From: Gallionellaceae bacterium
GTDB taxonomy: Bacteria > Pseudomonadota > Gammaproteobacteria > Burkholderiales > Gallionellaceae
Direction: 5' to 3'
NCBI GenBank assembly: GCA_037140475.1
Contig: JBAXEJ010000004.1
Coordinates: 1,599 to 65,598, forward strand
Length of the DNA: 64,000 nt
Shown in pieces: positions 55,257 to 63,694 of this stretch. Each line of letters opens with the position of its first letter. The stretch's first letter is position 1. The position numbers were made by a program, and so were the translations under genes. Under the pieces are notes generated by a model. That model ran no database searches. It was not told the origin of the DNA and saw only the letters and a program-made list of their open reading frames with translations.

Positions 55257-56393
55257 GTGAAACCCATCGTGATTGTCGGCAGCGGCATAGCGGCTTACAC
55301 CGTCATCCGTGAACTACGAAAAATTAATCGTGACTTACCTATCACCTTGGTTTCTCGTGACAGCGGCGATAGCTACTCAAAGCCCATGCTATCGAATGCC
55401 TTTGCACAGAAGAAAGATATAAGCAATTTGGTGCAAACATCGGCGACGGGAATGGCAAAGCAGCTGGACTTTAATCTGCTTGCGAATACTGAGGTGCGCG
55501 CCATTGATCGTGAGCGCAAGCAATTAGATACCGCCTCGGGCGTTGTTGAATACGAAAAATTAGTCTTGGCAGTCGGTGCTGATCCCATTCGCATTCCATT
55601 ACAAGGCGGTGCTGCGGATGCTGTTTTATCAGTGAATAATTTGACCGATTACGCAGTGTTTCGCGAACAACTTACAAACGCAAAGTCAGTTGCCATCATG
55701 GGTGGAGGGCTCATCGGATGCGAGTTTGCCAATGACCTCGCCACAGCAGGCTACGCCGTAACTGTGATTGACCCAAGCGCCTACCCGCTGGCCAGCCTAA
55801 TGCCTGAACAAGCAGGAAAGCAGCTGCTCGCACCACTCGAAAAAATCGGCGTCACTTGGCATTTTGGCACCTCGGTCCAAAGCATGAACAAAGCGGGATC
55901 TGGCTTCACGCTGACACTCGCCAATAGCACTAGCTTGCAAGCCGATCTCGTGCTCTCTGCAGTCGGTCTGCGCCCACGCATTCAATTAGCAAGCAATGCA
56001 GGTTTGGCCGTTAATCGCGGCATCGTTGTGGATGCCTCGCTGCGCACAAATGATGCTTCGATTTTTGCACTGGGTGATTGTGCCGAGATTGAAGGCAAGG
56101 TTTTGCCTTATATTTTGCCGATCATGAATGCGGCGAGAGCACTGGCTAAAGTCCTCAATGGAGAAGATGCAAAGGTTATTTTTCCCGCCATGCCAGTGGT
56201 GGTTAAAACACCTGCACATCCCGTTGCCTTGTCACCTGTGGCGCGTGATGCCGTCGGTATATGGCAACTCTTGGCATCCGGCGATGGAGTGAAAATGGGG
56301 TTTTTTGATCAAGCGCAAAACATGCTTGGCTTTGCACTCACTGGCGAATTTGCTAGCGAGCGTTCAGAGATGGCGCAAAAACTGGTTATTTGA
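55257..56393 (+). CDS. FAD-dependent rubredoxin-NAD(+) reductase-type oxidoreductase
   Basis: [12 protein letters not shown] (FAD) and [17 protein letters not shown] (NADH) dinucleotide motifs, and GDCAE. GTG start at 55257 with AAGGAGA upstream. Confidence 0.8.
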
Positions 56394-57249
56394 TGAGGTA
56401 GTCAAGGGCGATGCCCGCAAACACCGCAGCACCTATCCAGTTGTTATGCAAAAAAGCCGCGAAGCATTTTTCGCGGCTTCTTTCTTTAATCAAGCCATAG
56501 TGATAAAACGCGATGCCCTCGGCAACGATCAACCCCGCAAAGAATGCCACTCCTAGTCCGGTCATGAGTCCTGCCACTGCAAGCAAAGTCAGTGTAATGC
56601 CGTAACAAACCATCACCGCAATCACGTCGTATTTTCCAAAAAACAATGCCGAGGAATGAATGCCGAGATGAATATCATCATCACGATCGACCATCGCATA
56701 TTCAGTGTCGTAAGCAATCGCCCAAAATACGTTTGCCAGCAACAACACCCAAGCCACTGTCGGCACATCCCCTAGCGTTGCGGCAAACGCCATCGGAATG
56801 CCAAAGCCAAAGGCAATCCCCAAATAAGCCTGAGGAATGGCAAAAAAACGCTTGGTAAACGGATAGCTTGCTGCAAGAAATACCGCAGGAATTGACAGCA
56901 ACAGGGTCAAACGATTCAAAGGAAGTATTAATAGAAAGGCAATGAGCGACAAACCCGCAGCCAACAATAACGCTTCGCGCGTACTCACCTTGCCGCTGGT
57001 GAGCGGCCTGTCTTTAGTACGTTTCACATGCTTATCAATATCGCGGTCTGCATAGTCGTTAATCACGCACCCAGCAGAGCGCATCAGCACCGTCCCCAAA
57101 GTAAAGATAAGCAAGATTAACCAATTGGGATGTCCTGCGCTCGCAATCCATAGCCCCCACAGCGTGGGCCAGAGCAACAGCAAAATACCAATAGGACGAT
57201 GCAGGCGGGCGAGTTGAAAGTAGAGATGTAAACGTTCAGTGAGATTCAT
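56386..57249 (-). CDS. ubiA: 4-hydroxybenzoate polyprenyltransferase
   Basis: UbiA prenyltransferase motifs NDYADRDID and [13 protein letters not shown]. Polytopic. Confidence 0.93.
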
Positions 57250-57306
57250 GAGCTGATTTTAACTCAGCTCGAGCTGTAAACTGCACATACAAACTAAGGC
57301 AAAAGC

Positions 57307-57669
57307 TTAAACATAAAACTTGGAATCCTTACGTTTTCCCGGCTTGGCTTTTTGTATCACCACCCCTTTGACTACCTCAACACCTGGCACGTCTTCACTC
57401 GGAAAATTTTCATTCAGTGCCACCAGCGAGTGGCGTCCATCCTGAATGCGCATTTGCCGCATGGTGTATTCCCCGTTATGAAAAGCCACCACAAAAGAAC
57501 CGTCTTTCACCAAGCCATCCGGCTCAACAATAATGACGTCGCCCTCGACAAATTCCGGCATCATCGACTCGCCATGCACCATCAGAGCATAAGCCTCGCC
57601 ACTACTGCATGAATCGCCCTCGCTGATCTCTTCAGCCGGCATGATGGGTATGATTTTATGTGTGCTCAT
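57307..57669 (-). CDS. S24 (LexA/UmuD-like) peptidase-domain-only protein
   Basis: VHGESMMPEF.EGDVIIVEP block equals the S24 Ser motif. No HTH domain. The position equivalent to the catalytic Lys appears to be Arg (see findings). Confidence 0.7.
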   Translation of the reverse strand: MSTHKIIPIMPAEEISEGDSCSSGEAYALMVHGESMMPEFVEGDVIIVEPDGLVKDGSFVVAFHNGEYTMRQMRIQDGRHSLVALNENFPSEDVPGVEVVKGVVIQKAKPGKRKDSKFYV

Positions 57670-57699
57670 TTAATCGCTTTCGTTTTTGATATTTTTAAC

Positions 57700-58095
57700 T
57701 TAGCCAGCTACTTGAATAATCTGATTCAATCGCTCACAAACCTCGGCAAATTTAGCATCACTCAGTGCTTTAAGTGGATGCATTTTTGCCTTGCGCAAGC
57801 GCCAGTCAAAAGACTTAGGCTGATGGCACAACACAAAACTAATTTGCCCTGCTTTACGACCCGATGCTTTTCCTACGGCCACTGCAAAAGGGTTATCTGA
57901 GTTGTATTCCGCAGTCGTCATAGGCAGACCAATCACCAGAGAGGTCTTCTCATTAAATACACGCGGTGACAACACCAAAAAAGGATGCACATCGCGCATC
58001 TCTCGCCCTACCTGTGGATTGCAATCAATCCAGATAATCTCTTGCCGGTCTGGCACCCAGCGTTTTGTCGGCGCAGTTTTGGATGCGACTACCAA
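57700..58095 (-). CDS. mazF: MazF/PemK-family type II toxin (mRNA interferase)
   Basis: WVPDRQEIIWIDCNPQVGREM…RPFLVLSP…VIGLPMTT pattern. 7-nt overlap with the upstream antitoxin gene. Confidence 0.85.
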   Translation of the reverse strand: MVVASKTAPTKRWVPDRQEIIWIDCNPQVGREMRDVHPFLVLSPRVFNEKTSLVIGLPMTTAEYNSDNPFAVAVGKASGRKAGQISFVLCHQPKSFDWRLRKAKMHPLKALSDAKFAEVCERLNQIIQVAG

Positions 58096-58343
58096 CGCTC
58101 TGCTCCCAAATTTTGCGTGGTCGTCATTTGCTCACCGCCATGCCGTTTTACATCGTAAGCAGCCACTCGCTGCTCTAGTGTTAAACGAGAAACGTCTAGC
58201 GGCTTAATGACAACTTGCTCGCCCTCCACCGAAATGCGCACCCGTTGATCTGCATGGAGATGAGCCGCCCGCGCAACCGCTGCGGGCAAACGCACCCCTA
58301 AACTGTTCCCCCACTGCTTAATATCAAGCTCAGCTTCTGACAT
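58089..58343 (-). CDS. mazE: MazE/AbrB/SpoVT-family antitoxin
   Basis: IKQWGNSLGVRLPAAV swapped-hairpin motif. Start set at ATG 58343 (GGAGAAG upstream). Confidence 0.8.
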   Translation of the reverse strand: MSEAELDIKQWGNSLGVRLPAAVARAAHLHADQRVRISVEGEQVVIKPLDVSRLTLEQRVAAYDVKRHGGEQMTTTQNLGAERW

Positions 58344-58358
58344 AACTTCTCCAAAAAA

Positions 58359-58382
58359 ATGTATAGACGTGAGTCTATACAT
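58359..58382. promoter_or_regulatory. perfect 10-bp inverted repeat upstream of mazE (operator and/or terminator of the upstream gene)
   Basis: atgtatagac-gtga-gtctatacat. On the minus strand it is followed by TTTTTTT, then the mazE SD and ATG. Confidence 0.5.
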
Positions 58383-58406
58383 TAAAAGAGATCGGGGCAA
58401 ATAAGA

Positions 58407-59993
58407 TTAAAATGCAGTTGTAAGTCGAATCCCCGTCAACGTTGAAGCCTGTTCTGCACCACTTACCTGACGCGCATTAAATGAAACACTCTGCCCCTTG
58501 CCTATTGCGCTAACTAAATCTAAGTTTACGGTTTGTTTTATCTCGAACGCAGAGGAGGTCGATTGCGTAATCTGTATTGTATAAGCTGTTTTATCAGTCA
58601 ATTGCTTGTATAAATTTAACCTCATTTCGATTTGTGCAAGTGAGGAGCTACCTGAGTCTTGGCTTGAAAAAACAACGGCCCCCAAAGGTAGTGCCGAAAT
58701 AACATGGCTACCGATGAAATAACTAACGCCTCGACCAAACGTTAATTTATTTTCAGCATAGTTTTTATTTAAATGCATGCGGTAATTCGTATAGGACATA
58801 TCGAACGCCTGCGTGAAACCTTCTCTCAAATACTCACTGGGTTGATTCGATTCAATGTTTATTAATTGAAACTGATTTAAGCTAACGCGCCCTGCACCTT
58901 CAATCATTAAAACTGTTTTTAACACCTGCACCGTGGCATTTTTTTGATCGAAAAACGCTTCGTTATCAAGATTAATAAAGCCAGGGCTAATTGATACGAG
59001 AGCCGCATTTTTTTGTGGCAGCCATTGCGCCGACAATAACCCTGCACTGGGTGAACGCGCAGGATCTTTTGCTTTCATCTCGGTGTGAGCCGCGCTAATT
59101 GGAAATTCTCGTTTTAATGCAAATAAAAAATTACGCCTGTTCGCATCCCCCTCACTTGGAATTAAATGCTCTGCTATGACAGAAATCGCATTTTTATTCG
59201 CCCCATCAGATAAATTTTGTGTAGGTGAATATTTAAAATAATTTTCGATGATTTGTTGCTGAGAAGGGGAAAGCGCATCATATTCTAACGTGGCACGAAG
59301 CTGAGTTGATGGCAAATAGGTCGCCGATACAATCATATTTGCTGCCTGTGTCCAGCGTAGCGTGTTCACCGGAGAAACGAAAATTTCTCTGCCAAACCTT
59401 AGCTCTTTACCTGATTTCTCTAGCGCCTTAGCAATATAAAAAGCACAGTTTTTCTGACTAAAATCGTAGAGGTATTTTTCACGCTCAGATTGAAGCAAAA
59501 ACTGTTTTAGTTGATGCAACCTTTCTTCGTTAAAACTTAATCGATACAACCAGAGGCTACGATTTTCGCCATCGTACTCACGTCTTTTTTCTGCTAAATA
59601 ATTAAGCGAATACTTTCCCGGCACTGACAAAAACAAGGCTGACAATGATGACGATAAGTCGGGGGCCTCACCTGTAAATTCAACCAACAGTGAATTCGCT
59701 TCGGGAGCTTCCTCATTGTGAAAGACGAGAAAGGTATGTCCAAAAATTGAAATGGCACTTCGTAAATTTTGCGAGGCAAAGCCTAAGCTCACTTTTGAAT
59801 AATTATTTAATTCAGAAAATATCGGATTTCTGCCCCACTCGGCATACCCCGCCACTGAGTACATCAATAGCAATACAGTTGCGCATCGGCATAAAACTCG
59901 ACTCACTGATTTTCTAAACTGAGGCTGACTTTGCAAGCAAAATTTTCTAAAGTAGGGCTTCGGATTGCGAGTGCAGGAATGCCCGCTAGCCAC
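58407..59993 (-). CDS. DUF4105 (Lnb N-terminal-like) protein, probable outer-membrane/periplasmic protein
   Basis: FGHTFLVF…Y.F..KNCAFYIAK pattern of DUF4105. C-terminus ends …RLTTAF (OMP-like terminal Phe). The true start is probably downstream, e.g. GTG about 59906, which gives signal peptide SRVLCRCATVLLLMYSVAGYA. Confidence 0.7.
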   Translation of the reverse strand: MASGHSCTRNPKPYFRKFCLQSQPQFRKSVSRVLCRCATVLLLMYSVAGYAEWGRNPIFSELNNYSKVSLGFASQNLRSAISIFGHTFLVFHNEEAPEANSLLVEFTGEAPDLSSSLSALFLSVPGKYSLNYLAEKRREYDGENRSLWLYRLSFNEERLHQLKQFLLQSEREKYLYDFSQKNCAFYIAKALEKSGKELRFGREIFVSPVNTLRWTQAANMIVSATYLPSTQLRATLEYDALSPSQQQIIENYFKYSPTQNLSDGANKNAISVIAEHLIPSEGDANRRNFLFALKREFPISAAHTEMKAKDPARSPSAGLLSAQWLPQKNAALVSISPGFINLDNEAFFDQKNATVQVLKTVLMIEGAGRVSLNQFQLINIESNQPSEYLREGFTQAFDMSYTNYRMHLNKNYAENKLTFGRGVSYFIGSHVISALPLGAVVFSSQDSGSSSLAQIEMRLNLYKQLTDKTAYTIQITQSTSSAFEIKQTVNLDLVSAIGKGQSVSFNARQVSGAEQASTLTGIRLTTAF

Positions 59994-60048
59994 TGCGTGT
60001 AACTTAAATTTATTTTCGAAAAATTTTTATAGAGGCTTCGGGTGACCC

Positions 60049-60122
60049 ACCCTCCGCCTTCTGACGCCTCGCGTAATATTGCCGAGGCATGCAGAAGGGC
60101 TAATGAATTAGCATTCGGAGGG
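60049..60122. other. about 73-nt all-Watson-Crick three-way-junction element (candidate structured RNA or REP)
   Basis: Nested stems ccctccg/cggaggg, ccttctg/cagaagg and gcctcg/cgaggc, plus side hairpin gctaa-tgaa-ttagc. Located between the PEGA gene stop and the DUF4105 gene. Strand undetermined. Confidence 0.4.
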
Positions 60123-60138
60123 CAGTACTCCTCTAGTT

Positions 60139-60510
60139 TTACTTTTTTGTCATATCAACTTGAATAGTTGAAGGGGCATATTTATACATTGCTCCACTCA
60201 CCCCATCTGTTGTCGATCCGATACCTCCGCCACAAAGAATGTTGCCCCAAAAAATCGGCTCAAATGAGGTATCCATCGTAATGATTTTAGTTTCAAAACC
60301 TTCCTTGCTAACCTGAACAAGCGCTTTGCTAGCGCGTTCAATTTCACCCGTGAACGGAGTTTTACCTACTGGTTTTCCGTTTACGGTGACGTCTGCTTCA
60401 GTAACATTTGAGTTAATCGTAACAACTTGTTTTTTACCATTCACAATGGTCGAACATCCTGTAGCAGACAAAAGTACAAGTGTAGAAACTGCAATAAGCA
60501 AGGCTTTCAT
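60139..60510 (-). CDS. PEGA-domain lipoprotein
   Basis: Lipobox LLSATG-C. PEGA-like VTEADVTVNGKPVGKTPF. Confidence 0.7.
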   Translation of the reverse strand: MKALLIAVSTLVLLSATGCSTIVNGKKQVVTINSNVTEADVTVNGKPVGKTPFTGEIERASKALVQVSKEGFETKIITMDTSFEPIFWGNILCGGGIGSTTDGVSGAMYKYAPSTIQVDMTKK

Positions 60511-60694
60511 TAATTTTCCTTTAAAAATATTAAATAAAACAGATAGTTGCTTATTTCATTAAGCTCAATCTGTTGATTTCTGATCGTATTTAAACCCCTC
60601 CTACTTACTAATACTGCGATGCCCTTTTTCGTTTCTTGAGCAATATTATTGTTCGCAGCAGGCCGCATAATGCCTATCGTGTATCGAATAAGCA

Positions 60695-60735
60695 ATAGCC
60701 TTTGGCACACAATGGCTATATAGCCATCGGCTATA
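60695..60735. promoter_or_regulatory. array of GGCTAT/ATAGCC half-sites including a perfect 14-bp palindrome (candidate XRE operator)
   Basis: tggctatatagcca at 60713-60726, flanked by atagcc (60695-60700) and ggctat (60729-60734). Ends 15 nt before the XRE ATG. Confidence 0.4.
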
Positions 60736-60749
60736 CAATCCGCGCCACT

Positions 60750-61091
60750 ATGGACAATCGCATCAAAAAAGCGCGGAGTGAAAAAGGATGGAGTCAAGCT
60801 GACTTGTCGCGGCGAATGTTCGTTTCTCAACCTTCCGTTGCTGCTTGGGAGTCAGGGCGCAAAGCCCCTCACACCAAAAACTTAGCGCGTTTGGCCATGT
60901 TGCTAGAGGTAAGCGTGGAATGGTTGACTACAGGGCGCGGGGATAAAAACACTGTTAGCACTTTAGCAACTCAAGAAACCAGTGCTGATTGGATGTTGCC
61001 GGAAGAGCGTCGTTTGCTGGATTACTTTGGCAATCTCAAACCTCATCAACGGACAACGTTGTTAGGTTTTTTAGAATCGCTAAATTCTTAA
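60750..61091 (+). CDS. XRE-family helix-turn-helix transcriptional regulator
   Basis: IKKARSEKGWSQADLSRRMFVSQPSVAAWESG HTH. Start set at ATG 60750. Confidence 0.85.
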   Translation: MDNRIKKARSEKGWSQADLSRRMFVSQPSVAAWESGRKAPHTKNLARLAMLLEVSVEWLTTGRGDKNTVSTLATQETSADWMLPEERRLLDYFGNLKPHQRTTLLGFLESLNS

Positions 61092-61140
61092 GCACCTGTT
61101 ATTTCAGAGCCTGCGCACACTAAAAAGTTGTACTTAAAGT

Positions 61141-61674
61141 TTATTTAGTAAGCTGCAAAATCTCTGGCAGAAAAACTTCTGTCACCAATAGCGGCGCCCC
61201 TTTCAAATAAAACAAGGAACGACGCGCCCACAAAAACGGTGGTGCCATAGCCAAATCTACGCAAGCACTTCGATACAAAGGATGCTGCTGTTGGAGTTTT
61301 TTGTAATGCAAGGGCTGGCGCTTCACCAAGGGATGCCTAAACAGCAACGTGCCGAGTGAACGATTACCCAAACCGCGTATCGCGTACCAAGCACCCCGCG
61401 AATCACGCTCAGCGCAAGCGCTATGTGCGAACACCACGGGCTTGCCATCTGCAAACAAAAAAACTTCGCGCGAAAAAGCCAAGCGATCATTTGCGAACCC
61501 CAGCGTCGCGGCTTCATCAAAAGCCACTCGTGCCAGACCACTGCGTACAGGCTGCACAGAAAATTGCTGGCAGCGTTGTTGTATGCGGCGCGTCAAAGAG
61601 CCGTGGTCACGCAACCACGGAGCGTAACTCGCGGCCGAGCCAAGCAATAAATTTTGCCAATACATATCACGCAT
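61141..61674 (-). CDS. ubiC: chorismate pyruvate-lyase
   Basis: WLRDHGSLTRR, REV.L…GKPVVFAHS and LVTEVFLP blocks typical of UbiC. Start (61674 or 61665) overlaps or abuts the recG stop. Confidence 0.85.
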   Translation of the reverse strand: MRDMYWQNLLLGSAASYAPWLRDHGSLTRRIQQRCQQFSVQPVRSGLARVAFDEAATLGFANDRLAFSREVFLFADGKPVVFAHSACAERDSRGAWYAIRGLGNRSLGTLLFRHPLVKRQPLHYKKLQQQHPLYRSACVDLAMAPPFLWARRSLFYLKGAPLLVTEVFLPEILQLTK

Positions 61675-63694
61675 GAAGAAAGTCCGGTTTGTTCGCCATC
61701 CAGCGCTGCAAATGCGCCTGCGCAACATCGGGCATGTCACATAACAGTTCATCGGCAAGCGTTCGCGCTGACTCTAACAATTTTTCATCTTCGTTAATGT
61801 CGGCAAAGCGTAGCATTGCTTCACCGCTTTGTCGGGCGCCTAACAATTCTCCTGGGCCACGCAGCTTTAAATCTTGCTGGGCGATTTCAAAGCCATCGGT
61901 ATTTTCAAAAATGATTTTCAAGCGCGCGCGTGCTAATTCGGACAACGGCGTTTTAAACAACAAGACACACATACTTTCAGCCGCGCCACGCCCTACTCGC
62001 CCACGCAATTGGTGCAACTGCGCCAACCCCATACGTTCGGCGTGTTCAATCACCATCAAGCTCGCGTTCGGCACATCGACGCCCACTTCAATCACCGTGG
62101 TTGCTACCAACAAATGAATTTCGCCTGCTTTAAACGCAGCCATGATGGCGGCTTTTTCAGTAGGCGGCAATCGACCATGCGCCAGCCCAACATTCAGATC
62201 CGGGAATGCTTCACTCAATTGTTGATGGGTTTCGATGGCGTTCTGTAGCTCAACTTCCATCAGCTCAGATTCTTCAATCAGCGGGCACACCCAATAGGCT
62301 TGGCGCTGTTGCAAACACGCGGCACGCACTCGCTCAAAAACTTCTTCTCGGCGATTATCGTTAATGAGTTTAGTCACGATGGGTGTACGCCCGGGGGGTA
62401 ATTCGTCGATCACGGATACATCAAGGTCGGCGTAGTAACTCATCGCAAGTGTTCTCGGAATAGGGGTCGCACTCATCATGAGTTGGTGAGGCTCTTTGCC
62501 TTTACCTCTCAAAGCTAAACGCTGCTGCACGCCAAATTTGTGCTGTTCATCAACAATCACTAAGCCTAAATTTTGAAACGCTACTGAGTTTTGAAACAGC
62601 GCATGTGTGCCCACGGCAATTTGTGTTTCGCCCTGTGCAATTTTTTCAGCCGCCGCTGTTTTTTCTTTTTTCTTTAAGCTACCCGAGAGCCACACCGGAG
62701 CAATGCCCAGCGGAGTCAGCCAATCTAGCAATTTCAAATAATGCTGCTCGGCTAAAATTTCCGTTGGCGCCATAAAAGCAACTTGATAGCCATTCTCAAT
62801 CGCTTGCAATGCTGCTAAGGCAGCAACCACCGTTTTACCGCTACCCACGTCGCCTTGTAGCAAGCGCTGCATAGGATGAGGCTTTGCTAAATCCAATTTA
62901 ATTTCTTGTAGCACTTTTTGTTGCGCGCGAGTCAATGCAAAAGGCAAGGCTTGCAATAGTGCGGGGGTAAGGGTTTCACGCGGCAACAATTGCGGGGCGA
63001 TACGCTCGTGCCGCTTTTGATAATGCACGCGCATGGAAAGTTGCTGCGCCAGTAGCTCATCGAACTTAATCCGCCGCCAAGCAGGATGAGCTCGTTCCAG
63101 CATCTCTGCCTCATCAATCTGCGGCGGCGGGTTGTGCAGCATTTTTACACTCTCATCGAAAGCCGGAAGTTTTAGTTTTTTCAGCAAACTTACGGGGAGC
63201 GTGTCAGACAATTCCTCCGAGTTCAGCGCCGCGAGAATGTATTTGCGCAATGTCGGCTGGGGCAATCCAGCGGTTGTCGGATAGACCGGCGTGAGCGCTT
63301 GCTTGAGTGCTTTGTTTTCGCCGCCGGCATGACACTTTGGATGCACCATCTCTAAACCGAAATAACCTTCGCGCGCTTCGCCTAAGGCACGAATTTTTTT
63401 GCCCACCGCCAATTGCTTTTGCTGACTCGGATAAAAATTTAAATAGCGCAAAAATAAAATACCACTCTCATCCTGCAACTGACATATCAAACTGCGGCGA
63501 GGGCGATACATCACTTCGCTATGAATAATCTCACCCTCGACCTGTGCCGTTTCACCCTGCACCAGATCATCCACGCGCGTAATGCTCGTTTCGTCTTCGT
63601 AACGCAAAGGTAAATGCAACACCAGATCGAACGGTGTGTGAATACCAAGCTTGGCGAGCTTGGCTTGCGTCACGGGAGGGATTTTCAACATCAA
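61667..63694 (-). CDS. recG: ATP-dependent DNA helicase RecG
   Basis: Wedge domain followed by SF2 motifs GDVGSGKT, DEQH, SATPIPRT and QLHQLRGRVGRG. Confidence 0.96.
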   Translation of the reverse strand: MMLKIPPVTQAKLAKLGIHTPFDLVLHLPLRYEDETSITRVDDLVQGETAQVEGEIIHSEVMYRPRRSLICQLQDESGILFLRYLNFYPSQQKQLAVGKKIRALGEAREGYFGLEMVHPKCHAGGENKALKQALTPVYPTTAGLPQPTLRKYILAALNSEELSDTLPVSLLKKLKLPAFDESVKMLHNPPPQIDEAEMLERAHPAWRRIKFDELLAQQLSMRVHYQKRHERIAPQLLPRETLTPALLQALPFALTRAQQKVLQEIKLDLAKPHPMQRLLQGDVGSGKTVVAALAALQAIENGYQVAFMAPTEILAEQHYLKLLDWLTPLGIAPVWLSGSLKKKEKTAAAEKIAQGETQIAVGTHALFQNSVAFQNLGLVIVDEQHKFGVQQRLALRGKGKEPHQLMMSATPIPRTLAMSYYADLDVSVIDELPPGRTPIVTKLINDNRREEVFERVRAACLQQRQAYWVCPLIEESELMEVELQNAIETHQQLSEAFPDLNVGLAHGRLPPTEKAAIMAAFKAGEIHLLVATTVIEVGVDVPNASLMVIEHAERMGLAQLHQLRGRVGRGAAESMCVLLFKTPLSELARARLKIIFENTDGFEIAQQDLKLRGPGELLGARQSGEAMLRFADINEDEKLLESARTLADELLCDMPDVAQAHLQRWMANKPDFLHA

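Follow-up and report, generated by a model that had tools for sequence, protein, structure and literature searches.

What is the 3.9-kb islet that separates ubiC from ubiA in a bacterium of the family Gallionellaceae, and how did it come to lie there? The islet occupies positions 57250–61140 of a stretch of 64,000 nucleotides (nt), here called the window, which belongs to contig 4 of a 2.79-Mb genome in 189 contigs (assembly GCA_037140475.1, contig JBAXEJ010000004.1). A first-pass annotation of the window had described it as an AT-richer islet, an old or integrase-less acquisition stabilised by a toxin-antitoxin (TA) pair, that split a biosynthetic operon. Our gene map, which is based on a listing of open reading frames (ORFs) and on profile searches of the window proteins, confirms the six annotated genes between ubiC and ubiA and their order: from the ubiC side they encode an XRE repressor, a PEGA-domain lipoprotein, a protein with an Lnb_N (DUF4105) domain, MazE, MazF and a stand-alone S24-fold protein. 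We think it likely that the islet is a composite insertion, and that its AT-rich core is a mobile envelope cassette with a lipoprotein gene read through a −1 frameshift and an enzyme gene coupled to it. The islet itself is ordinary genome plasticity and its value lies in the content of this AT-rich core, which is treated first. Features given below are on the minus strand unless otherwise indicated.

The PEGA gene (60139–60510; PF08308) has a zero-frame product of 123 amino acids (aa), and its stop codon lies about 240 nt upstream of the start of the Lnb_N gene. A structured RNA-like element had been noted in the islet; it does exist, but is part of a coding frame that had gone unrecognised and is not intergenic. 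The spacer between PEGA and Lnb_N shows codon-like conservation, and the presence of a heptamer signal together with a conserved −1 ORF indicates that this supposedly non-coding segment is coding. Thirteen independent copies of the PEGA-Lnb_N pair, 12 of them distinct, were compared. The slippery heptamer A_AAA_AAG (60142–60148 in the window) is found at the end of PEGA, in X_XXY_YYZ phase, in all 13, and the zero-frame stop follows it after 0, 3 or 6 nt, again in 13 of 13 (in the window a TAA at 60139–60141 comes directly after it). Twelve of the 13 also have a −1-frame stop four codons before the heptamer ends. The codon before AAA-AAG encodes T, E, A or V and always ends in A, and the Lys-Lys pair of the heptamer is always written AAA-AAG though AAG is the less frequent of the two Lys codons (23%). 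At three synonymous positions the heptamer shows no variation; among 18 neighbouring columns in which the amino acid is invariant, just one has an invariant codon as well. Beginning 6 nt 3′ of the heptamer is a putative frameshift-stimulatory RNA structure of nested helices, or three-way junction (60030–60135), which was recognised by its minimum free energy and by covariation. Its minimum free energy is −49.9 kcal/mol (z = −5.6), and none of 200 shuffled sequences was as stable. Across the 12 distinct copies 85.6% of the cells in the pairing are standard pairs, versus 44–52% in slid controls; 12 pairs show compensatory changes, and the covariation score of 0.194 compares with 0.04–0.09 for the slid controls and was reached by 0 of 500 shuffles. 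RNAalifold independently gives the same three nested helices, and an Rfam scan of 56300–61800 at E ≤ 1 returned no match.

The frame that a −1 shift would enter (59903–60142, defined by comparative frame analysis) encodes a 79-aa extension (VKLEEYCPP...FACKVSLSLENQ) and ends in a TGA stop. In the window this frame contains no ATG, GTG or TTG anywhere, and ribosomes could enter it only by a −1 shift out of the PEGA frame; in the other copies the first start-like codon is always downstream of the conserved EEYCPP motif. It might be supposed that the segment serves only as a regulatory RNA (an attenuator, a terminator or a small RNA) and that the −1 frame is incidental or is the decaying remnant of a fused gene, as would suit a region that folds very stably and whose translation matches no protein family. 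The reading frame itself argues otherwise. Its 78–79 codons hold no stop in any of 12 divergent copies, against 2–10 stops per copy in the other two frames, and this despite synonymous saturation (median dS 1.57; complete saturation in 21 pairs). Third codon positions carry the most differences (1399/1060/2696 by codon position), the median dN/dS is 0.16, and conservation continues for 130 nt past the structure, up to the stop codon. Twenty-nine residues, two Cys among them, are invariant in the first six aligned copies. AlphaFold2 (AF2), given 11 sequences, models the extension with confidence as a compact six-helix domain (pLDDT 88.6, pTM 0.78), and the absence of any Rfam match in the scan above is a further point against a purely regulatory RNA. 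The −1 frame is coding and is under purifying selection; we regard the idea that the segment is regulatory RNA and nothing else as very improbable.

The extension is rare and stands apart from known families. Foldseek comparison of its model with the PDB gave no hit better than E = 2.7, and neither the extension nor the PEGA-extension fusion matched any family beyond PEGA in Pfam and NCBIfam; the 247-position LEPBI_I2678 profile stops short of it. No annotated protein of 111–353 aa carries the extension among 5.8 billion clusters. Exhaustive HMMER searching of 1.8 billion representatives found only four ORFs, of 67–76 aa, one of which is an internal-start call in a copy of the cassette; two long repetitive proteins that also scored were judged spurious. 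When 401 genomes of the order were searched in six frames with a profile of the extension, only the window's own genome gave a match, and pattern scans for extra loci yielded two in the genome collections, two in metagenomes and none in the viral collection.

The best reading of these features is that PEGA would add a new gene family to those with programmed −1 ribosomal frameshifting of the dnaX/IS3 type. Escherichia coli dnaX (gamma/tau) and the OrfAB genes of the IS3 family, of which IS911 and IS150 are examples, have the identical A_AAA_AAG in the same phase as the PEGA heptamer, and in both a stable 3′ structure follows after a short spacer, as it does at the PEGA site (6 nt). In dnaX there is in addition an upstream stimulator resembling a Shine-Dalgarno (SD) sequence, which is not obligatory. 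The shifted ribosome terminates almost at once in dnaX and yields the shorter product, whereas the PEGA shift would lead to a longer product, like that of IS3 OrfAB. PEGA differs from both in that its stimulator, which is long and branched, lies inside the newly entered coding frame, in that its product would be a secreted outer-membrane lipoprotein and not a replication or transposition protein, and in that the stop of its frameshift ORF overlaps the start of the following gene as NTGA. Cellular −1 frameshifting that gives two isoforms in a set ratio occurs in copA (CopA(Z), E. coli) and in csoS2 (CsoS2A/B, alpha-carboxysome operons). These resemble PEGA as chromosomal genes outside mobile elements that use −1 frameshifting; their slippery sites and protein families differ from those of PEGA, and the frameshift there truncates the protein. 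To our knowledge conserved programmed −1 frameshifts in bacterial cellular genes are few (dnaX, copA, csoS2 and a handful more), and we know of no coupling to a downstream gene described for copA or csoS2. Frameshifting of the dnaX type gives rise to two products with a common N-terminus (PMC3711429, PMC5389563).

The −1 ORF might still be expressed by another route: through slippage of the polymerase on the A-run with gain of one A, through non-canonical initiation, or through a phase-variation switch in the DNA. Slippage of the polymerase on A-runs is indeed at work in some dnaX genes and IS elements (PMC3711429), and several copies of the cassette have A7; however, the conserved unit is A6+G in fixed phase, and the window and the copies on L062, L094 and L095 have only six A's, which falls short of the more than seven in the runs linked to transcriptional realignment (PMC3711429). 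Moreover, a stable structure conserved at 6-nt spacing is the hallmark of a ribosomal and not of a transcriptional mechanism. Initiation within the −1 frame finds some encouragement in three distant homologs annotated as stand-alone ORFs of 74–76 aa, but there is no NTG in this frame in the window, and in all copies conserved N-terminal residues precede any start-like codon. As for phase variation, 13 of 13 independent assemblies are in the same out-of-frame state, unlike a phase-variable tract. We judge all of these routes together unlikely, and ribosomal frameshifting on the heptamer is the reading used below.

How would the gene that follows be translated? The Lnb_N gene (58407–59906; 499 aa) starts at the GTG at 59906 and not at 59993. 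In 11 of the 12 distinct copies the TGA of the −1 ORF overlaps an NTG in the Lnb_N frame (NTGA; the start codons are 7 TTG, 2 CTG, 1 GTG and 1 ATG), the signal peptide of the Lnb_N protein begins exactly at this overlap, and no SD-like sequence is present in the 15 nt upstream of the start in the copies analysed. From these computed features (a coding −1 frame and a conserved heptamer, structure and overlap) we infer the following scheme. XRE would bind a probable operator in the divergent XRE/PEGA control region, the perfect 16-bp palindrome ATGGCTATATAGCCAT with its flanking half-sites (60711–60726, no strand assigned), and would thereby repress both itself and the operon. Most ribosomes on PEGA would stop at the TAA and produce the 123-aa prolipoprotein. 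With the stable structure 6 nt further on as stimulator, a fraction would shift by −1 at A_AAA_AAG and would add the two-Cys, all-helical domain of 79 aa to give a 202-aa isoform. The slipped ribosomes would come to an end at the UGA that overlaps the SD-less GUG of Lnb_N (GUGA) and would reinitiate there; because they would both terminate and reinitiate at the overlap, Lnb_N synthesis would be tied to the frameshift, and Lnb_N might be translated mainly by such frameshifted, reinitiating ribosomes. We suggest tentatively, and with somewhat less than even confidence, that this is a new recoding system in which one frameshift makes a second lipoprotein isoform and also provides the main route to the Lnb_N start, a frameshift-gated form of translational coupling.

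The two cassette proteins both appear to belong to the cell envelope. PEGA has the lipobox SATG|C with Ser at +2, and thus is probably an outer-membrane lipoprotein; over its full length it also matches phrog_6823 (E = 2e-13), a phage family whose function is not known. The Lnb_N protein matches PF13387 (E = 8.5e-21) and, weakly, DUF7840, and its residues H57, H63, N153 and C154 are invariant (alignment A6; H57 and C154 in 14 homologs). Behind its signal peptide the computed architecture is an Lnb_N/DUF4105 domain, a helical linker and a C-terminal beta-barrel. The AF2 model (pLDDT 76.7) accordingly shows an N-terminal alpha/beta domain, a helical region and an all-beta C-terminal third (pLDDT about 90) that ends in ...TTAF, and in Foldseek this third matches the 12-stranded outer-membrane barrels FapF and NanC and the autotransporter beta-domains of EstA, AIDA-I and BrkA, the two groups equally well. 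In the Bacteroides lipoprotein N-acyltransferase Lnb, DUF4105 forms the catalytic domain, which is periplasmic and belongs to the permuted NlpC/P60 superfamily (PMC11573676, PMC12994826), as do the type VI secretion effector TseH and the lipid-targeting Tox-Act1 (PMC12994826); Lnb, 398 aa long, resides in the inner membrane, which it crosses with five transmembrane helices (PMC11573676). The cassette protein is like Lnb in having PF13387 and in being encoded next to a lipoprotein gene; its invariant H57 and C154 are of the kind expected in a permuted NlpC/P60 catalytic core and may correspond to H49 and C148 of Lnb. It differs from Lnb in its cleavable signal peptide, its C-terminal outer-membrane beta-barrel and the absence of transmembrane helices. 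Since it has no transmembrane helices and a separate 644-aa paralog is present in the genome, it is not an Lnb ortholog. On the strength of these models, it may be an outer-membrane-anchored or autotransporter-like acyltransferase or hydrolase that acts on envelope lipids or lipoproteins. A longer Lnb_N paralog is found in most genomes of the genus (G000:C21:35075–35641; L034–L042), with open frames of 600–700 aa in most of them; it has P0016-like domains (PF25225+PF13387+PF25222) and is 25–31% identical to the cassette protein.

PEGA is followed by Lnb_N in every context of every homolog retrieved (genomes G007 and G019, and metagenome contigs L061–L065 and L093–L099), and the pair always has 39–44% GC, versus 43–60% GC for its flanks or hosts. 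Transposases (ISL3, IS3) adjoin it in L062 and L064. It is a rare pair, with about 15 clusters among 5.8 billion proteins; its carriers fall in three Genome Taxonomy Database (GTDB) species (G000, G007, G019) and amount to 1 of 401 genomes of the order. The cassette was not found in the phage, plasmid or viral contig collections searched: PEGA gave no match at E ≤ 1e-3 in tblastn against 50,697 phage records, and Lnb_N none in tblastn against plasmid records. PADLOC called no defence system, with generic helix-turn-helix (HTH) hits for XRE only and none for the other six products. The defence-island and prophage-remnant contexts that the first-pass annotation had proposed to look for thus receive no support from these searches.

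The XRE gene (60750–61091, plus strand; PF01381, NF007257, NF041951) encodes a DicA/RstR-like repressor of 113 aa, and its start is the ATG at 60750, M17 of the long ORF, as the homolog in L061 shows. In that contig, from a family-level relative, an XRE 83% identical to the window protein precedes PEGA-Lnb_N, with the same GGCTATATAGC operator core and TACAAT box as in the window and without S24 or mazEF. An XRE gene of G007 was considered as an ortholog of the window XRE and rejected, as the two do not align, and for this reason XRE is not a universal part of the cassette. Just before mazE lies a hairpin with an 11-bp stem and a T-run (58358–58383), the predicted intrinsic terminator of the PEGA/Lnb_N operon and possibly also a MazEF operator. 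Among the several regulatory palindromes that had been reported for the islet, the operator and this hairpin are present in the sequence. XRE, PEGA and Lnb_N (58358–61091) thus appear to form a rare, horizontally moving cassette, which is the only AT-rich module of the islet. Two observations concern its surroundings elsewhere. In G019 (L053:9909–13936) the PEGA/Lnb_N pair (43–46% GC) lies directly downstream of, and on the same strand as, pgaB-, pgaC- and pgaD-like genes, which were called from reading ORF translations and have ORF GC of 51–58% in a locus of 58% GC; this adjacency may reflect a link to exopolysaccharide export, or mere insertion. Directly after Lnb_N, type II TA genes of a different family are found in each of three copies (DUF433/PIN at L061:7841–8502, HigBA at L098:2463–2963 and MazEF at 57700–58343 of the window), and TA modules seem to be drawn to the cassette's 3′ end.

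Base composition separates this core from the rest of the islet. GC over the whole interval is 43.6%, where the genome averages 48.3% (z = −2.2, the 2nd percentile of equal-sized genome windows), so the islet taken as a whole is indeed AT-richer as had been described, but the deviation is confined to 58407–60749, where GC is 41.1%, within the lowest 0.5% of genome windows. GC at third codon positions (GC3) is 0.32 for PEGA (percentile 0.4%) and 0.37 for Lnb_N (percentile 2.4%); in GC and GC3 only these two genes are deviant, and S24, mazF, mazE and XRE, at 47–51% GC, are within the native range. An effect of amino-acid composition was considered and rejected, because GC3 is the position that deviates most. 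The three hand counts of G+C on which the earlier description rested (20/60 and 20/60 within the Lnb_N gene, 29/60 in recG) were all exact.

The native-composition genes next to ubiA have histories of their own. MazF (57700–58095; PF02452) is a predicted PemK-like toxin and MazE (58089–58343; PF04014) a predicted antitoxin of 84 aa, whose start, by sequence reading, is the ATG at 58343 with a GGAG SD sequence in front. The two genes overlap at 58089–58095 with the antitoxin gene first, the arrangement of a MazEF pair. Copies of mazF that are 82–84% identical occur at unrelated loci in G008, G015, G016 and G017, and from this pattern the mazEF pair appears to be endemic to this bacterial family and to constitute a second module. 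The S24 protein (57307–57669; 120 aa; PF00717, E = 3e-17) is a member of a family of at least 100 clusters of about 120 aa, mostly from Gallionellaceae or Sulfuricella-like sources. In alignments to the C-terminal domains of lambda CI and LexA, its R71 falls on the catalytic Lys of those structures; in a 29-member family alignment Arg is invariant at this position and the nucleophile column holds S, A, E or D. The family sequences surveyed (P0017–P0123) have an invariant Arg-Gln at the Lys position, an invariant Cys21 near the N-terminus and a conserved basic tail, KPGKRKxSKxYV. Its genes are solitary elsewhere, beside AhpC/DnaJ, SpoIIE-type regulator, rhodanese/GGDEF or MutL/RNR genes, and no HTH gene or conserved neighbour accompanies them in the four other contexts. 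Compared with the autoproteases LexA, lambda CI and UmuD, the S24 protein shares the fold signature and aligns with the C-terminal domains of CI and LexA, and it is without the Ser-Lys dyad, a DNA-binding domain or a conserved partner gene. It is best described as a pseudo-peptidase, predicted to be catalytically dead, and as an independent third module.

These results bear on the simplest account of the islet, in which it would be a single old, integrase-less island that arrived en bloc, was stabilised by MazEF, and encodes in XRE and S24 the two halves of a split, cleavable repressor like CI or LexA. In its favour, the genes form one uninterrupted run that most relatives lack, the nearest relative (genome G005) has both ends of the islet, and XRE and S24 match one phage repressor family, phrog_4, on its HTH and S24 parts respectively. 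Against a single island, only 2.3 kb is compositionally foreign, mazF has its close copies at other loci of relatives, XRE accompanies PEGA-Lnb_N in L061 without S24, and S24 genes are solitary in unrelated housekeeping contexts. Against a split repressor, profile searching shows that XRE carries its own DicA/RstR-like C-terminal region and is a complete protein, and because Arg is invariant at the catalytic Lys and the nucleophile position is variable, the S24 family would be unable to cleave itself in the canonical way and is not a cleavable repressor half. Asked for as a check by the first-pass annotation, co-occurrence of the islet genes elsewhere thus holds for XRE with PEGA-Lnb_N in L061 and fails for S24 and mazF, which are found apart. 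The single-island, split-repressor model is largely refuted, and we consider it highly unlikely; the islet is a patchwork of three independent modules and not one element.

When, then, did this patchwork enter the ubiC-ubiA junction? The flanking genes are native: ubiC (61141–61674; PF04345 and synteny) encodes chorismate lyase, with recG beyond it in the ORF listing and profile searches, and ubiA (56386–57249; TIGR01474 at 350 bits above cut-off, PF01040) encodes 4-hydroxybenzoate polyprenyltransferase. At least 11 relatives from the genus, the family and the order have recG, ubiC and ubiA side by side, with a ubiC-ubiA gap of 0–145 nt (contiguous ubiC-ubiA loci: L003–L007, L010–L012, L014, L016, L021 and L024), and ubiC-ubiA adjacency extends to other families of the order (L024–L026, L028–L030). 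In the synteny comparison that had been called for, the ends of the islet are common only to G005 (ubiC 98% and ubiA 94% aa identity). In G005 they lie on separate contigs, one with XRE next to ubiC and the other with S24-mazF-mazE next to ubiA. The alternative that the arrangement is ancestral, and that contiguous ubiC-ubiA in the relatives results from repeated deletion of the six genes, could appeal to the instability of the junction in this family, where G009, G001 and G024 hold 0.9–3 kb of other DNA and ubiC and ubiA are unlinked in G010, G011 and G018 with housekeeping genes around each. Yet the two genes are adjacent in those 11 or more genomes of several genera and even beyond this family, elsewhere in the order, unrelated cargo fills the remaining occupied sites, and PEGA-Lnb_N, with its foreign GC3, sits at different loci in G007, G019 and L061; we give repeated deletion next to no credence. 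The recG-ubiC-ubiA array was contiguous in its ancestral form, and the islet is an insertion into it that is lineage-specific and integrase-less.

The insertion is recent, and the junction is permissive and collects small modules. As had been stated, no integrase or transposase is present in the islet; the window ORFs reveal none there, nor any recombinase or tRNA/att target, and the search for repeats at its borders turned up, for direct and inverted repeats, only short matches at chance level. In these absences it differs from an integrase-mediated island or prophage remnant. It is more like the small integrase-less islets and TA-decorated loci that are known, being short and lineage-specific, lying at an intergenic site that varies repeatedly and carrying a type II TA pair, and it differs from small islets of that kind in having three modules with distinct compositions and distributions. 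Of the description as an old or integrase-less acquisition, the insertion without an integrase and the MazEF pair remain; it is not one element, and it is not old, because only the nearest relative, with ubiC 98% identical in aa sequence, shares it. The cargo at the junction in other genomes comprises about 3 kb with an AraC/GlxA-like regulator and a 365-aa ORF in G001 (L045:715–3675), 1.56 kb with a 462-aa lipoprotein in G024 (L051:12673–14232) and 868 bp without a convincing gene in G009 (L043:2234–3100). Palindromes of about 100 nt, resembling MITE or REP elements and with ACGTCATTCCCGC...GCGGGAATGACG arms, lie at the junction in G004 (L005:2020–2163) and G006 (L010:1359–1500).

On the ubiA side the border of the insertion is marked by a GTTAAAAT box (57256–57263), 6 nt before the ubiA ATG, which was recognised by comparing the ubiC-ubiA intergenic regions of 12 relatives; in the form GTTAAAAT or GGTAAAAT, 6–7 nt before the ATG, this box is conserved at empty sites, and it is kept in the window. 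A TAAAAT box before the ubiA ATG is conserved in all relatives compared, and ubiA has no SD sequence (57250–57276 in the window); in the window a hairpin, GAGCTGA-N7-TCAGCTC, overlaps the TAAAAT box. The box could be a −10 element, and ubiA may have its own, possibly leaderless, promoter, which we infer would be why the junction tolerates insertions. The biosynthetic operon has been split, in that the insertion entered a contiguous array, but the split is probably harmless because the junction is broken or filled in several relatives and ubiA keeps its TAAAAT box. Small changes are seen nearby as well. Between the rubredoxin-reductase gene and ubiA, which converge and overlap in the window (56386–56393), G005 has about 1.4 kb (L055:1243–2637), another small indel between the two closest genomes. 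The tblastn matches to recG are split by gaps of about 235–295 nt in G012 (L007:2839–3135) and G011 (L013:2833–3068), which could be due to masked sequence, an insertion or an assembly issue.

Several observations weigh against the interpretation of the islet as a composite insertion around a frameshifted cassette. The G005 contigs break off at 58412 and 60603 of the window, precisely on the borders of the AT-rich segment, and the PEGA-Lnb_N segment is absent from that assembly, so that the part shared with G005 may be limited to the two ends of the islet. The covariation test rests on 12 distinct copies only, and these are mutually related. PEGA has no dnaX-like SD stimulator, as no GGAG-like element is found 8–14 nt upstream of its heptamer (alignment A5). 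No in-frame PEGA-extension fusion occurs among the 5.8 billion clusters. Finally, the three distant homologs of the extension (P0127, P0129 and P0130; 74–76 aa) begin near the conserved motif, and may be independently initiated versions of the domain.

If the proposed coupling is true, the frequency of frameshifting would set the ratio of the two lipoprotein isoforms and the level of the enzyme together. The cassette places all the canonical frameshift signals in a secreted lipoprotein, to which the shift would add a domain without known relatives or a fold match, and the downstream enzyme belongs to a superfamily (Lnb/TseH, NlpC/P60) of proteins that acylate lipoproteins or attack lipids. Beside the cassette, the S24 family, with its invariant Arg, conserved Cys and basic tail, would be a widespread, uncharacterised family of pseudo-peptidases. 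Gene callers miss the extension in every copy of the cassette, and thus similar hidden trans-frame domains may lie in other structured regions that are taken to be intergenic.

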